In this document: positions 332-43,699 of the stretch, in pieces | How positions within the stretch are numbered: the stretch's first letter is position 1 | How the letters are laid out: every line of letters starts with the position of its first letter | IMG/VR virus record: IMGVR_UViG_3300044613_003659 | Span: 43,597 to 107,596 of that record | Reading direction: 5' to 3' (one strand) | DNA length: 64,000 bases | From: a virus | Notes under the pieces: generated by a model | What the model was told of the DNA's origin: nothing | What the model saw: the letters and a program-made list of their open reading frames with translations, nothing else | Database searches by the model: none | Program-made: the position numbers and the translations under genes

Positions 332-408
332 TGGTACCCACTCCTGGAATCGAACCAGGGACCCCAACCTTATCAAGATTGTGCTCTAACCGACTGAGCT
401 AAGTGGGC
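332..408 (-). tRNA. tRNA-Ile(GAT)
   Basis: Cloverleaf GCCCACT...AGTGGGT-A-CCA, anticodon loop TT-GAT-AA, T loop TTCGATT. Confidence 0.95.
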
Positions 409-409
409 A

Positions 410-484
410 TGGCCGGTCCGGACAGATTCGAACTGCCGACAGCTGGTTTCGAAGACCAGAACTCTTCCGCTGAGCTACGGACCG
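410..484 (-). tRNA. tRNA-Arg(TCG)
   Basis: CGGTCCG...CGGACCG-G-CCA, anticodon arm CTGGT-CTTCGAA-ACCAG, T loop TTCGAAT. Confidence 0.92.
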
Positions 485-514
485 TTAAATAAAAGTATGC
501 TTGGTAAATTAATA

Positions 515-591
515 TGTTGGGTCTGGATGGATTTGAACCAACTACCTCCGTGTTGTTTGCACGGTGCTCTACCAGATTGAGCTACAGACCT
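515..591 (-). tRNA. Atypical or pseudo tRNA, nominal anticodon AAC (Val)
   Basis: D arm GCTC-AATCTGGTA-GAGC, anticodon arm CCGTG-CAAACAA-CACGG, T loop TTCAAAT. Has A33 instead of U33, an A1:C72 mismatch and a 3' ACA end. Confidence 0.6.
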
Positions 592-668
592 CCCCGGTCC
601 GGGAACTAATTCTCCTGCAACCGGTACAATATTTATAGGACAACAATTTACATAGTTCGAGAACTTAT

Positions 669-1370
669 ATGACATTACACATCATTGGACACAGTATGAC
701 AATCGGGCATCATTGTCATGAATCACAGTCAAATCGAAATTTACCTACAACATTCAGTGACATGTTGATAGAAAAATATCGTGATCAATTTGATGTTCAA
801 GTGCATTCCTACAGACAATGTTCTGAAGAACGAATTTTACAGATTGTAAGAACAATAAAGTCGCCCATCGATAAAGTGATTATTTTCCATTCCCACCCGT
901 CATTTGTTTATTTTCCTAGTTTTGATCGAGACATTGGATGCATAGATGATATAGAATATATACAAAGTTTAGATATTGTATGTTACTATAATTACTGTAA
1001 ACCCGGAAAACCATTTGACCCTAACGATAAGCTTTCTAGACCCATATCCGGCTCTGAGTTCGTGCAGATATATAAAACAGTTATGAACTACACGGTGTCA
1101 GCTGATGTTTCACAAAAACGTTTCAATGGAGCAATACTACAAATTGATCAACTGCTAACAGTTAGAAAAATTCCTGTGATACATTGTCCAATGGCCAAAA
1201 CATTACCAGTCTGGTTTAATTTTTCTTCTGGCATTACAGATAACGAGTTGAGTATCATCGACTCGGGTAAACATAATATAGGGTACCAAAGATCTTTAAA
1301 CGCTATTGATAATGAAGGGAATACAATTATCTTTAATAAATTATCAGAATATATTGACAATTTAACTTAA
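669..1370 (+). CDS. Hypothetical protein (possible SGNH-like fold), antisense within the tRNA array
   Basis: 233-aa ORF; N-terminal HIIGHS resembles the GDS block. Confidence 0.6.
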   Translation: MTLHIIGHSMTIGHHCHESQSNRNLPTTFSDMLIEKYRDQFDVQVHSYRQCSEERILQIVRTIKSPIDKVIIFHSHPSFVYFPSFDRDIGCIDDIEYIQSLDIVCYYNYCKPGKPFDPNDKLSRPISGSEFVQIYKTVMNYTVSADVSQKRFNGAILQIDQLLTVRKIPVIHCPMAKTLPVWFNFSSGITDNELSIIDSGKHNIGYQRSLNAIDNEGNTIIFNKLSEYIDNLT

Positions 1371-1446
1371 TGGTGCCGGCTCCTGGTTACGCTCCAGGCC
1401 ATTATGCTCTTCAGGCATACGCTTCCACTAGGTTAGCTTAGACGGC
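1371..1446 (-). tRNA. tRNA-Phe(GAA) with non-canonical T loop
   Basis: Anticodon arm TATGC-CTGAAGA-GCATA, CCA end, T arm CCTGG-AGCGTAA-CCAGG. Confidence 0.85.
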
Positions 1447-1447
1447 A

Positions 1448-1523
1448 TGGGGTGTCCGACCGGTATCGATCCGGTACTACCAGTTTCACAGACTAGTGTG
1501 CAGGCCACTACACTACGGACACC
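1448..1523 (-). tRNA. tRNA-His(GTG)
   Basis: Encoded G-1:C73 pair, loop CT-GTG-AA, T loop ATCGATA, CCA end. Confidence 0.9.
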
Positions 1524-1525
1524 AC

Positions 1526-1600
1526 TGGTAGGGGATGAGGGATTCGAACCCCCGCATGGCGGAATCAAAATCCGCTGTCTTACCGCTTGACGAATCCCCA
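1526..1600 (-). tRNA. tRNA-Gln(TTG)
   Basis: Anticodon arm GCGGA-TTTTGAT-TCCGC, T loop TTCGAAT, CCA end. Confidence 0.93.
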
Positions 1601-1601
1601 A

Positions 1602-1751
1602 TTAACTTGGTATGACTTTTGGAATGTAAGGAACATTCCTGGGCCCGTGACGTTGTTCAAACAACATTCTTGCTTCTTGCAAATCTTTTGCGTACACACG
1701 ATCTTTTTGATCACCTTGCGGTGTTCTTACTGTAGTTTCATACATTGGCAT
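1602..1751 (-). CDS. Small hypothetical protein (49 aa, MPMYETTVRTPQG...)
   Basis: AGGAG Shine-Dalgarno before ATG 1751. The longer track start overlaps a structured RNA. Confidence 0.7.
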   Translation of the reverse strand: MPMYETTVRTPQGDQKDRVYAKDLQEARMLFEQRHGPRNVPYIPKVIPS

Positions 1752-1765
1752 TACCGTCTCCTTGT

Positions 1766-1864
1766 ACCATATAGAAACACACTGTGGGATTCGAACCCTC
1801 ACTCTCGGCATCAGAGAGCATTACCACCCGTCGTGCCCTTCGGCTCAATGTGTTTTTATATGGT
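1766..1864 (-). ncRNA. tRNA-like structured RNA with a long closing helix
   Basis: ACCATATAAAAACACA pairs with TGTGTTTCTATATGGT. Inside are the hairpin CTCTC-TGATGCC-GAGAG and a T arm GGG-TTCGAAT-CCC. Confidence 0.6.
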
Positions 1865-1937
1865 GGGTGCGGTGAGATTCGAACTCACGACTCTCTGATT
1901 AAAAGTCAGATACTCTAACCAACTGAGTTACGCACCC
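1861..1937 (-). tRNA. tRNA-Lys(TTT)
   Basis: GGGTGCG...CGCACCC-A-CCA, loop CT-TTT-AA, T loop TTCGAAT. Confidence 0.95.
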
Positions 1938-1993: not shown

Positions 1994-2022
1994 ATTTTAC
2001 ATCTATTTTACATTACGGTCAA
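1994..2022 (-). promoter_or_regulatory. Sigma70-like promoter internal to the tRNA array
   Basis: TTGACC-N17-TAAAAT. Confidence 0.6.
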
Positions 2023-2286: not shown

Positions 2287-2381
2287 TGGTAGTAGGCCAG
2301 GGATTCGAACCCTGTCGTTCCAGCCCATCTAGCCAGTCTCCACGGTTTATAAGTCCGCGCCGCATACCAATGCTGCCTACC
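2287..2381 (-). tRNA. tRNA with TAT anticodon (Ile, AUA) and long variable arm
   Basis: GGTAGGC/GCCTACT-A-CCA, short D arm GCAT-TGGT-ATGC, loop CT-TAT-AA, about 26-nt variable region, CAGGG-TTCGAAT-CCCTG. Confidence 0.85.
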
Positions 2382-2384
2382 ATT

Positions 2385-2460
2385 TCAGCACACTCTGGTT
2401 GTCCAAAAGACCTCCTTCTCATCGTCACGGGACAAGAACGATATTCGTCCAAAGTGTATG
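2385..2460 (-). ncRNA. Putative structured RNA abutting tRNA(TAT)
   Basis: Closing helix ACACTTTGG/CCAGAGTGT; inner helices ACGA/TCGT and TTGTCC/GGACAA. Confidence 0.45.
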
Positions 2461-2554
2461 ATTGAGCAGACTAGTGGCTACGGTGATAGCACGACTGCTG
2501 TCCAAGCAGCTGGGATTACAAGGCCCCCGATACTCTTCTAATCTGTTCAATCAT
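2458..2554 (-). ncRNA. Putative four-way-junction RNA
   Basis: 17-bp closing helix ATGATTGAACAGATTAG/CTAGTCTGCTCAATCAT (one G-U pair, one mismatch) enclosing three hairpins. Confidence 0.55.
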
Positions 2555-2653
2555 TCCCGTTTTACTAAGCCGTTACCGCCGGCAGGTTCATCAAGGGCTC
2601 CGCCCGTTTAGCAATTTATAGTGCTGCTGCGGCCTCGTTCCGCTTACACTTTG

Positions 2654-2821
2654 TTATCTATGTCGCTTAGTTAGACGACGTAATTCTTCATTTGTTTCCA
2701 ATTGCTCACGCAATCTTTTCATTTTACCTTTAACTAATTGTTCAAGTAACTTATCGTTAAAAACAAAATTACGTTCTTCTAACTTTTTTTGAAACGACAG
2801 TATATCTTGTTCGTTCGTCAT
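2654..2821 (-). CDS. 55-aa charged, helical hypothetical protein (MTNEQDILSFQKKLEER...), first gene after the attenuator
   Basis: AGGAAG before ATG 2821; open to TAA at 2654. Confidence 0.65.
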   Translation of the reverse strand: MTNEQDILSFQKKLEERNFVFNDKLLEQLVKGKMKRLREQLETNEELRRLTKRHR

Positions 2822-2831
2822 CGCTTCCTTT

Positions 2832-2870
2832 ATAAAACAAAAACCCCAGGGTTTTGAGTCCTGGGGTTTT
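2832..2870 (-). terminator. Intrinsic terminator of the putative attenuator
   Basis: AAAACCCCAGG-ACTCAAAAC-CCTGGGGTTTTTGTTTTAT. Confidence 0.85.
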
Positions 2871-2889
2871 ATAGAATTTAATTACAACC

Positions 2890-3009
2890 TTAGATTCTAT
2901 GATCCCCCCAGGCACGATTACTATCACCGCGTGTAATCATAACCCAATAGGCTATTAGCCCAAATTCGGGTTGTGATTTAAATGAGCAATGTAATTGTAC
3001 TTGGTTCAT
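2890..3009 (-). CDS. Putative attenuator leader peptide (39 aa) containing all 20 amino acids
   Basis: MNQVQLHCSFKSQPEFGLIAYWVMITRGDSNRAWGDHRI*. Its 3' end forms the antiterminator strand. Confidence 0.7.
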   Translation of the reverse strand: MNQVQLHCSFKSQPEFGLIAYWVMITRGDSNRAWGDHRI

Positions 3010-3019
3010 AATAGTTTCT

Positions 3020-3048
3020 ATACTACATTTATTTATCTTTGTAGTCAA
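3020..3048 (-). promoter_or_regulatory. Sigma70-like promoter of the leader/tRNA operon
   Basis: TTGACT-N17-TAGTAT, 10 nt before the leader ATG. The spacer also contains ATAAATA. Confidence 0.7.
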
Positions 3049-3920: not shown

Positions 3921-4523
3921 TCAAGACAAAGTTAAACTAGGTTGACTATCAAAGTCTCGAATTAAACTTTGTACAGTATTGGCATATACCTGAGTACTGT
4001 GAGAGTAATCAGCATGATCCACACCAACAGTCAATGCAGTTTGGTTGTCGCGCAGTGTCTTGATCATGTCTGCAGTTAGTTCAAAACGTAAAAAATGCAC
4101 TGCTGCTGTTTTAACTTCGTTGCTACGATCAAGATCTTCGTCTGCAATTGCATACACAGGATCATGACCTTCTACTCGAACATACACACGGTCTTCAACT
4201 CCGCGTAGTCGAGCCAACTGTTGTTGTCTTACTGCAGGATCACCGTATTCAAGAGTGAGAGTAGCTTTTAGATTGGTACCTGTGGGAATCAATGGATTGT
4301 ATGCATCAAGTTCATCCTGGATTCCCTGCTTACTAAAAGTACGCTCAATCAACAGCATCTCTTGAATCTGATATTGAACTGTAACACGATCCTCAAAGTG
4401 CAAGGTCATGTTCATGCCCAATTTGATCTGCCTACGCTTACGGTGTTCTACAGCCAGACGCTTGTAGTCTGGACGTTTTGAACTGTACTGTTCAAGAGAA
4501 TGTAGGTCTTGATGTGTAAGCAT
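3921..4523 (-). CDS. DUF3501 family protein (rubrerythrin-associated)
   Basis: FEDRVTVQYQIQEML...YNPLIP...AVHFLRF; adjacent to rubrerythrin. Confidence 0.85.
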   Translation of the reverse strand: MLTHQDLHSLEQYSSKRPDYKRLAVEHRKRRQIKLGMNMTLHFEDRVTVQYQIQEMLLIERTFSKQGIQDELDAYNPLIPTGTNLKATLTLEYGDPAVRQQQLARLRGVEDRVYVRVEGHDPVYAIADEDLDRSNEVKTAAVHFLRFELTADMIKTLRDNQTALTVGVDHADYSHSTQVYANTVQSLIRDFDSQPSLTLS

Positions 4524-4524
4524 A

Positions 4525-4959
4525 TTAGGCACTTTCAGCACGATAGGTGTCTAGAGTTTTCTTGAACTTGCCAGCATGGCTACGCTCGGCCTTGGCCAAT
4601 GTGTCAAACCAGTCAGCAATTTCGTCAAAGCCTTCGTCTCTGGCATCACGAGCCATACCCGGATACATATCGGTATATTCGTGTGTTTCGCCATGGATAG
4701 CACTTTCTAGAGCCTGTACGATATCACCAGCTGGCAAACCAGTTTCTGGATCGCCTGAACCGCCGGCAATTAGATATTCCATGTGACCATGTGCATGACC
4801 TGTTTCACCTTCTGCGGTATGACGGAAGATGTTGGCTACGTCAGTTGCACCAGCGATGTCGGCCATGTTTGCGAAATACAAATAGCGACGATTGGCCTTT
4901 GATTCACCTGCAAAAGCATCTTTCAAATGCTGTTCTGTTTTAGTTCCTGTAATTTTCAT
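4525..4959 (-). CDS. Short-chain rubrerythrin
   Basis: [34 protein letters not shown] and AERSHA di-iron motifs; AGGAG before ATG 4959. Confidence 0.93.
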
Positions 4960-5140
4960 TTTGATCTCCTTGTTGAAAAAGTGTTGCATTGCATTATATT
5001 ATATATGACTATTAGGCCTATTGTCAACTCGTTTTTAATAGTTTTTTTATGAATATTTTTTTATTGTTCTAATAGAAAAAATCTAAGTCCGTGTTGTCCA
5101 ATAAATATTTGTGCTTAAGGCTTTCAATTATGGGTGATAA

Positions 5141-12399: not shown

Positions 12400-12455
12400 A
12401 CGATTTTTCCTATTATACAGTTATATTTATAAAAATAGGCACCTAAGTGCCTATT

Positions 12456-12775
<320 letters not shown>

Positions 12776-12776
12776 T

Positions 12777-12911
12777 TTACTTACGTAAAAACCAAATCAT
12801 ATCTAAATATTTTTGAAGATGTTTTTCTTGAACGGATTTAGCCCAACTTGGTTGTGGTAAATTCCACCCAATAAATGCACCTACCATAATCCAAAAAATT
12901 GTTTCTAACAT
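12777..12911 (-). CDS. Small membrane protein (44 aa)
   Basis: MLETIFWIMVGAFIGWNLPQPSWAK; AAGGAG SD. Confidence 0.65.
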   Translation of the reverse strand: MLETIFWIMVGAFIGWNLPQPSWAKSVQEKHLQKYLDMIWFLRK

Positions 12912-43190: not shown

Positions 43191-43699
43191 ATGTGCCCTG
43201 TTACCTGAAGAGTATATCTTGGTGTAGTACCTAAGTTAGCTGCCATATGAGGAGCGTTCCAATCCCAGGTTAATGTAAAACCTTTTATGTAACCAGTGTA
43301 GGCTGTATTACAACATTCAACATAATGTCCTGATTGCCAATCTTCTAAGAAAATTACTGCACGTCTAATTGTATCTTCCTTGCCCTTGAGATTAAACAAT
43401 TCAATGTATCTTTTATATGTGTCAACATGCATCAGGAGCATTGTACCCGGATCCATTCTGTAATACGAAGTGCCTATATTTTTCCATTCTAAATGCTGAA
43501 AAAAGTCTATAATTTCTTTATTCCACAATGGTTGGCTATTACGCATATCGCACATGTAGCCGCCAAATGGTCCTCTGAATCCTGCATCTTCCCAGTCAAT
43601 CATAGTAGCAGGATCATTGAACTGTTCTTTCTTATAATTTAAATTTTTATATTCTTCATCCCAAAAAGGATCAAGATGAAAGTATTCGTGTGTTGCCAT
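43187..43699 (-). CDS. 2OG-Fe(II)/cupin hydroxylase-like protein
   Basis: HVD...HMAAN...RYTLQVTG. Confidence 0.7.
   Translation of the reverse strand: MATHEYFHLDPFWDEEYKNLNYKKEQFNDPATMIDWEDAGFRGPFGGYMCDMRNSQPLWNKEIIDFFQHLEWKNIGTSYYRMDPGTMLLMHVDTYKRYIELFNLKGKEDTIRRAVIFLEDWQSGHYVECCNTAYTGYIKGFTLTWDWNAPHMAANLGTTPRYTLQVTGHI

Follow-up and report, generated by a model that had tools for sequence, protein, structure and literature searches.

The DNA considered here, referred to as the window, is a stretch of 64,000 nucleotides (nt) that forms the terminal 64 kb (positions 43,597 to 107,596) of the 107.6-kb IMG/VR virus record IMGVR_UViG_3300044613_003659. Because this record has an estimated completeness of only ∼29%, its source is a giant phage; this phage is uncultured and derives from lake water. 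On the minus strand of the window lies a compact element composed of a promoter, a 39-codon open reading frame (ORF) and an intrinsic terminator, followed by a small protein gene, a structured noncoding RNA (ncRNA) and a long array of tRNA genes (Table 1). A sequence-only reading of the stretch had proposed that this element gates the tRNA array by means of a leader peptide that contains every amino acid. Well over a hundred relatives of the source phage carry the element, and comparison among them leads us to regard it as probably a ribosome-mediated transcription attenuator, one whose leader ORF would sample the whole genetic code.

Table 1. Features of the leader element and its surroundings, in window coordinates (position 1 is the first nucleotide of the 64,000-nt window; SD, Shine-Dalgarno sequence; aa, amino acids).
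Feature	Position	Strand	Details
σ70-type promoter, TTGACT-N17-TAGTAT	3020..3048 (TTGACT 3048-3043, TAGTAT 3025-3020)	-	9/12 consensus positions in scan; kept in 69 homologues
Leader ORF, 39 codons plus TAA	2890..3009 (ATG 3009-3007, TAA 2892-2890)	-	Near-leaderless, ATG 10 nt past the -10 box, no SD
P1, long imperfect hairpin over most of the ORF body	2912..3000	-	From folding; candidate pause/timing structure
P2, antiterminator	2860..2912	-	CCUGGGG (2912-2906) and AUAGAAU (2900-2894) with AUUCUAU (2877-2871) and CCCCAGG (2866-2860)
Intrinsic terminator, arms AAAACCCCAGG / CCUGGGGUUUU	2834..2870	-	CCCCAGG 2866-2860, 9-nt loop, CCUGGGG 2850-2844, U tract 2843-2834
55-aa ORF, first downstream gene	2654..2830 (SD AAGGAAG 2830-2824; protein 2654-2821)	-	Homologues in 39/69 relatives
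Conserved structured ncRNA	2383..2650	-	Follows the attenuator in 65/69 relatives
tRNA-like gene, UAU anticodon loop, long variable arm, encoded CCA	2290..2382	-	Rfam tRNA-Sec 31.7 bits, below gathering score
Second promoter-like site, TTGACC-N17-TAAAAT	1994..2022	-	10/12 consensus; just upstream of tRNA-Lys
Proximal tRNA array: Lys, Gln, His, Phe-like, Val, Arg, Ile	332..1937	-	Array runs on beyond the window start
tRNA-Val, anticodon AAC	518-591	-	ARAGORN call
Spacer of the leader promoter	3026-3042		
pqqA-like ORF, 24 aa	3109-3183	-	Own SD and terminator
DUF3501 and rubrerythrin genes	3921-4989	-	
Transfer-messenger RNA (tmRNA)	12401-12819	-	

The family was assembled from several searches. 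The first relatives were 11 loci gathered via the downstream 55-aa ORF; apart from L012, a weak match, they show 72–84% identity in the leader region. When IMG/VR was scanned for the terminator sequence, at least 120 loci came up. A leader profile gave 94 full-length matches, which reduce to 69 distinct sequences, and these 69 homologues are the base set for the family counts given below. Two other selections contributed further leaders, ∼75 in all, of which 45 were found via a different motif and ∼30 are partial profile hits. The GenBank phage collection yielded no relative of the region and no close relative of the source phage, and none of the bacterial and archaeal genomes searched, one per species, matched the main terminator pattern exactly. 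The stretch itself, whole or in part, was found in 24 DNA or unclassified sequencing runs, mostly metagenomes of lakes and other freshwater, with no RNA run among those listed.

The leader frame is open throughout the family. Each of the 69 homologues has an ORF, of 30–61 codons, whose stop codon lies 23–31 nt ahead of the terminator arm. Not one in-frame stop interrupts these frames, whereas the two alternative frames of the same span contain 235 and 278 stops. Where the closest relatives are aligned, the visible indels within the leader ORF have lengths divisible by three. The encoded peptide is another matter. Column entropy is 1.31, 1.27 and 1.30 at codon positions 1, 2 and 3, so all three positions are equally variable. 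The ratio of nonsynonymous to synonymous substitution rates (dN/dS) is ∼0.6, the differences by codon position number 374, 426 and 453, and few residues are conserved (W, G and SNDR). Since the frame is always open, yet the peptide is only weakly constrained, selection preserves the frame and mostly does not do so for the peptide sequence. We infer that the leader gene is translated. Searches of Pfam and PHROGs with the leader peptide found no family. One relative, L243, lacks the terminator region, and its leader ORF extends to 52 codons; this is apparently a decayed or rearranged copy.

The composition of the leader is more distinctive than its sequence. The window leader contains all 20 amino acids by codon 29, uses 29 distinct sense codons and has no run of a single residue, which reproduces both counts of the sequence-only reading. 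It also contains all 25 decoding classes, defined as initiator and elongator Met, two codon boxes each for Leu (UUR/CUN), Ser (UCN/AGY) and Arg (CGN/AGR), AUA and AUY for Ile, and the other 15; elongator Met is supplied by an internal Met codon. With the codon usage of this phage, the probability of finding 20 amino acids is ∼1e-4 in 29 codons and ∼0.005–0.006 in 39 codons. Only 1 of 200 small ORFs of the window reaches all 20 within 39 codons, and this one is presumably the leader ORF itself.

Such coverage recurs across the family at rates far from expectation. Full coverage of 20 amino acids is found in 55 of the 69 leaders, where 1.3–2.1 would be expected, and 9 more leaders have 19. Full coverage of the 25 classes is found in 36 leaders (expected 0.05–0.14), with 18 more at 24. 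Among the absent classes are AGR, lacking from 14 of the 69 leaders, AUA (10) and internal Met (8). These expectations are for equal lengths and for genome (phage), pooled-leader or uniform codon usage. After grouping into 14 clusters at 50% peptide identity, 20/20 amino acids are present in 7 clusters and 25/25 classes in 6. Rare residues are kept in number and move in position: exactly one Cys occurs in 54 of the 69 leaders, spread over 28 alignment columns, and exactly one His in 52, spread over 16 columns. The separately selected leaders behave alike, since all 20 amino acids are also present in 37 of the 45 found via a different motif and in most of the ∼30 partial profile hits. The codon classes crowd upstream of the antiterminator described below, with a permutation z-score (z) of ∼12 when the last 8–9 codons are excluded and phylogeny is left uncorrected. 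As judged from these diverging leaders, full coverage of amino acids and codon classes is under selection in the family. It had been predicted in advance that relatives would keep both the coverage and the terminator/antiterminator pairing while the peptide drifts, and the 69 homologues bear this out. Individual leaders depart from the pattern. Those of the close relatives L003 and L005 are without Cys, and the short leaders of L118, L195 and L110 hold only 13–18 amino acids.

The 3′ end of the leader is built into an RNA switch. Its last seven codons and its stop codon lie within the antiterminator P2, and the stop codon falls in the enclosed loop. The 5′ arm of the terminator is at the same time the 3′ strand of the antiterminator; the two helices are mutually exclusive. 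The sequence-only reading had pointed out this pairing, the position of the stop codon and a strong terminator sharing an arm with the antiterminator, and all three withstood our analysis. The full 189-nt leader RNA folds with −60.4 kcal/mol (z = −4.9 vs. shuffles). When the transcript is folded up to the terminator 5′ arm, the stop codon is enclosed by 11–23 antiterminator base pairs in 69 of 69 homologues. Folding of the antiterminator segment gives a mean z of −4.2 over the 69 sequences, with 98.6% of them below −2.

In most members the antiterminator has three parts, reading GGGGUCC, then GGAG, then a hairpin that holds the stop codon, then CUCC and finally GGACCCC, and the inner parts vary in sequence. 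The outer part covaries three ways. In the order antiterminator 5′ strand/shared strand/terminator 3′ arm, the prevailing set GGGGUCC/GGACCCC-AGG/CCUGGGG (55) is replaced by AGGGUCC/GGACCCU-AGG/CCUAGGG (9) or GGAGUCU/AGACUCC-AGG/CCUGGAG (1). Positions outside the terminator show compensations of the antiterminator only, such as GGGGUCU/AGACCCC in 7 sequences. Because the shared strand covaries with both of its partners, both helices are used. From the 3′ domain aligned with MAFFT, RNAalifold retrieved the terminator alone. The inner helices are misaligned there and the seed alignment is structurally inconsistent, and the pair counts were therefore anchored on the stop codon and the terminator.

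A partition-function model in which the ribosome masks part of the RNA predicts how translation might bear on this choice. The modeled probability of the terminator is ∼0.4 without a ribosome, or with the A site at least 12 codons before the stop, and 0.76–1.0 once the A site has entered the final 11 codons. The placement of the stop codon and of the regulatory codons fits, in its geometry, a switch in which the position of the ribosome would decide which helix forms.

A rival account of these features is that of an independent small gene or dual-function small RNA. Its transcript would always end at the terminator and would make a micropeptide and/or a stable RNA, with the alternative helix as its mature fold; it would lie near tRNAs because phage RNA genes cluster. 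Such a unit would indeed be expected to have its own strong promoter and strong terminator and a highly structured RNA, as this one does. The few conserved residues (W, G and SNDR) also speak for it, as does an excess of third-position changes in very close leader pairs (5/11/28), and action in trans is reported for an attenuator RNA and a leader peptide, rnTrpL and peTrpL. However, a functional peptide leaves the selection for 20 amino acids and 25 classes at shifting positions unexplained, together with the dN/dS of ∼0.6 and the equal variability of all codon positions. Nor does a transcript of fixed length account for a shared strand that covaries with both partners, for a stop codon that is always in the antiterminator loop, or for the lack of a strong promoter from the terminator to the first tRNA in 39 of 60 loci. 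We regard this explanation as improbable.

The body of the leader ORF is itself folded into the hairpin P1. The sequence-only reading had noticed two more hairpins inside the ORF as candidate pause sites; the pairing is present, and its parts are nested within one hairpin rather than forming two. P1 has an equivalent in the representative relatives that were folded, where a 5′ GAUCAUUA pairs with a conserved UAAUGAUCGU. A conserved hairpin of ∼90 nt, with conserved single-stranded and paired blocks, in front of what resembles the expression platform of a riboswitch, brings to mind a riboswitch- or T-box-like sensor, in which P1 would bind a ligand or a tRNA directly and set the terminator choice, the ORF being incidental. 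Rfam offers no match, to T-boxes or to any other family, at E ≤ 5 for the window or at E ≤ 1 for the relative L100. Moreover, an incidental ORF would not be open in 69 of 69 homologues, would not hold its stop codon in the antiterminator loop and would not show full class coverage. A direct sensor of this kind is therefore highly improbable.

At its 5′ end the element is laid out as the sequence-only reading had described it, with the promoter in place, a pqqA-like ORF and terminator upstream, and an ORF that starts 10 nt later without an SD; our translation is identical to the earlier one. In the relatives the promoter reads TTGACA-N17-TAcAAT, with a conserved motif, GACTAAATAAA, in its spacer. 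Nearly all family members have either GACTAAATAAA or GATAAATAAA in the spacer of the leader promoter (L002-L211), which could be a regulator site or an element of promoter strength. Two 5′ architectures occur in the family: a leaderless one, with the ATG 6–10 nt past the −10 box, and one with a 5′ untranslated region of 44–59 nt that contains a hairpin and AGGA. Members divide into two groups: the window, whose ATG is 10 nt past the −10 box, with L002-L012, L101 and L128 on one side, and L094, L107, L124, L166 and others on the other. The upstream pqqA-like gene is a stand-alone ORF that encodes the 24-aa MAWTTPQANDMRFGFEITMYIANR.

Transcription that passes the terminator would enter a characteristic series of genes. 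The 55-aa ORF comes first. Its counterparts in the relatives encode 53–62 aa, have a strong SD and start 12–20 nt past the U tract of the terminator. The window's protein is basic and helical-looking, and it matched no family in Pfam or PHROGs; the homologues have the motif LTxEQxxKLIxxKFERA. The ncRNA follows either the terminator directly or the small ORF; its conserved blocks are AACGAGG, UAAACA, AACGGGCGG, GGAUGA and GGCGAUAAC, and a search of Rfam with it gave no match. Next comes a tRNA-like gene, which the sequence-only reading had taken for a tRNA that reads ATA. Its UAU anticodon loop agrees with this claim, and so does ARAGORN's call of tRNA-Ile(tat) at the corresponding position of L003 and L005. 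ARAGORN makes no call in the window, however, and the Rfam score is below the gathering score.

The element is closely associated with tRNA genes. A same-strand tRNA array begins 180–1650 nt past the terminator in 60 of 69 loci, which are essentially all that extend far enough. The array of the source genome comprises 25 RF00005 hits and 2 long-arm tRNA-like genes, 27 genes that are all on the same strand and downstream of the leader. With one of the long-arm tRNA-like genes reading as Ser-UGA, the 27 genes together cover all 25 classes. The tRNA-Val called by ARAGORN with anticodon AAC has A34 and is found besides a Val-UAC elsewhere in the array. A second promoter, which the sequence-only reading had placed ahead of the distal tRNAs, is present as described.

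These downstream neighbors also suit a different input. The same anatomy could serve as a general translation-stress sensor that answers any slowed or failed translation, whether from ribosome-targeting defenses or toxins, host shut-off, starvation or low initiation. The all-codon make-up of the leader would then only keep the reading unbiased, and as payload the ncRNA and the 55-aa protein would matter no less than the tRNAs. Without any ribosome the antiterminator is kinetically favored, so that lost initiation would also give read-through. The most constant downstream neighbor is the ncRNA (65/69), the small ORF is directly next in 39/69, and extra promoter-like sites stand ahead of the tRNAs in many loci. 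An actinobacterial attenuator discussed below, that of whiB7, answers antibiotics as well as starvation (PMC10274678). General sensing, however, has no need of every decoding class. Selection for 25/25 classes and single-copy residues that move, such as Cys, point instead to sensing at the level of codons, and so does the match between the leader and a complete 25-class tRNA array. On this balance a general stress sensor seems unlikely.

In the all-codon attenuator that we favor, host RNA polymerase would initiate at the strong σ70-type promoter, and a ribosome would start at the near-5′-terminal AUG and read 39 codons among which every one of the 25 tRNA decoding classes is represented at least once. 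With fast decoding, the ribosome would be on or near the stop codon as the terminator is made, the antiterminator would be melted and transcription would stop. If the ribosome lags at an earlier codon, or if no ribosome initiates, the antiterminator would form first and transcription would read through into the 55-aa ORF, the ncRNA and the tRNA array. Slow decoding of any leader codon would probably let transcription continue into the tRNA genes. We infer this direction of the switch, from stalling to read-through, from the layout of the element and its conservation, along with the proposed physiological triggers, anticodon nucleases and starvation. The array encodes a tRNA for every class that the leader samples, and the circuit would therefore amount to a demand-driven feedback on the phage's tRNA supply.

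A bolder version of this proposal is conceivable, and we advance it tentatively. The leader may be a one-to-one roster of ∼25 phage tRNAs, each watched through a codon class of its own. If any single tRNA of host or phage were lost, for example through an anticodon nuclease, host shut-off or starvation, the ribosome would be delayed and the replacement set switched on; restored decoding would switch it off. The element would then provide both a homeostatic feedback on all tRNAs and a counter-defense, and the ncRNA and the 55-aa protein would be helpers under the same control.

Several observations weigh against an all-codon attenuator or limit its reach. At equilibrium and without a ribosome, the modeled probability of the terminator is still ∼0.4, which requires a kinetic switch. 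Full coverage is lacking in seven divergent singleton leaders, which contain 13–19 amino acids. The last class-completing codons, which belong to a conserved S-N-D-R-T-P-E block, stand just 2–6 codons before the antiterminator 5′ strand, and in the window leader codon 38 is the sole representative of the AGR class. A ribosome stalled at such late codons would probably mask the antiterminator strand and favor termination; the classes are thus perhaps sensed unequally. The conserved W and SNDR coincide with paired strands of the long P1 hairpin, and because this pairing explains their conservation, some of the coverage is structurally fixed. Directly after the attenuator come the 55-aa ORF and the conserved ncRNA rather than a tRNA. 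In 21 of 60 loci, the window included, a promoter-like site lies past the terminator and ahead of the first tRNA called by ARAGORN, so part of the arrays may escape the attenuator. Finally, most family members were gathered by a pattern that fixes the terminator sequence, and the covariation counts and z-scores ignore phylogeny apart from the split into 14 clusters.

It is useful to compare the element with systems of known function. The closest is the attenuator of whiB7 (wblC) in mycobacteria and other Actinobacteria, which we cite as a functional analogy; no sequence similarity to it was found, none having been looked for. There the residues of an upstream ORF (uORF) determine which amino-acid starvations are sensed, efficient translation leads to termination and stalled translation leads to read-through (PMC10274678). 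The uORF of Mycobacterium smegmatis contains every amino acid but Cys; whiB7 uORFs are Ala-rich (25–40%), in several species they lack several amino acids, and their output is a drug-resistance transcription factor (PMC10274678). Both systems place a long, compositionally diverse uORF before a choice of antiterminator or terminator. Unlike the whiB7 uORF, the phage leader is not Ala-rich, has no WhiB-like gene downstream, and is phage-borne with a tRNA array and an ncRNA as its output. Moreover, in the phage leaders selection acts on the complete set of 20 amino acids and 25 classes itself, whereas full coverage is not maintained in whiB7 uORFs.

Classical leaders, such as trpL, hisL, pheL and leuL and the multivalent thrL and ilvL, contain runs of one to three regulatory amino acids that match the biosynthetic genes they control, and without translation their 1:2 hairpin pre-empts the antiterminator. 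The phage element shares with them a short ORF, mutually exclusive hairpins, a stop codon placed so that the terminating ribosome would block the antiterminator, and possibly a pause hairpin within the ORF. By contrast, it has no run of cognate codons, each class being present about once or twice, no evident anti-antiterminator, and, downstream, the 55-aa ORF, the ncRNA and tRNAs in place of biosynthetic genes. Rfam leader models run on the window gave no match to the element; the sole Thr_leader hits (E ∼0.9) sit on the pqqA terminator.

Two further systems link tRNAs to regulation. The trn operon of Anabaena PCC 7120 is reported to be a long accessory tRNA array on a megaplasmid that is normally silent and is induced by translational stress, under a protein repressor, TrcR (PMC8421152, PMC10272220). 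The likeness lies in the long tRNA array, and the control would differ: a leader peptide and terminator in a phage, a repressor on a cellular megaplasmid. T-boxes bind one specific uncharged tRNA directly, without an ORF, and control genes for aminoacyl-tRNA synthetases or amino-acid metabolism. They resemble the phage element in tying the sensing of tRNA status to a terminator/antiterminator choice; the phage element, unlike them, would require an ORF. A search of the literature for leader-peptide attenuators on phage genomes or on tRNA genes found none.

Other genes of the window are noted in their own right. A DUF3501 gene (E = 1e-65) and a rubrerythrin gene lie next to each other and are host-like auxiliary genes. 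The phage also encodes a tmRNA with the tag peptide ANAANDEVFALAA, which scores 140–150 bits with the permuted and betaproteobacterial models; the host may accordingly be a betaproteobacterium.

It is an open question how tRNA arrays are regulated in phages and for what reason many phages have near-complete sets of tRNAs. The element described here would be textbook attenuation with a novel input and output: it would read the entire decoding repertoire instead of a single amino acid, and it would control tRNA genes instead of biosynthetic enzymes. All-class coverage with free turnover of positions is an unusual sequence constraint, and one that can be searched for elsewhere. If our reading is correct, a single natural ORF would act as a test pattern of translation capacity, and its architecture would offer synthetic biology a compact part that reports any shortage of tRNA or amino acids. 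For the phages themselves, it would mean that tRNA supply is driven by demand and possibly that the leader serves as a sensor of host defenses that target tRNAs.

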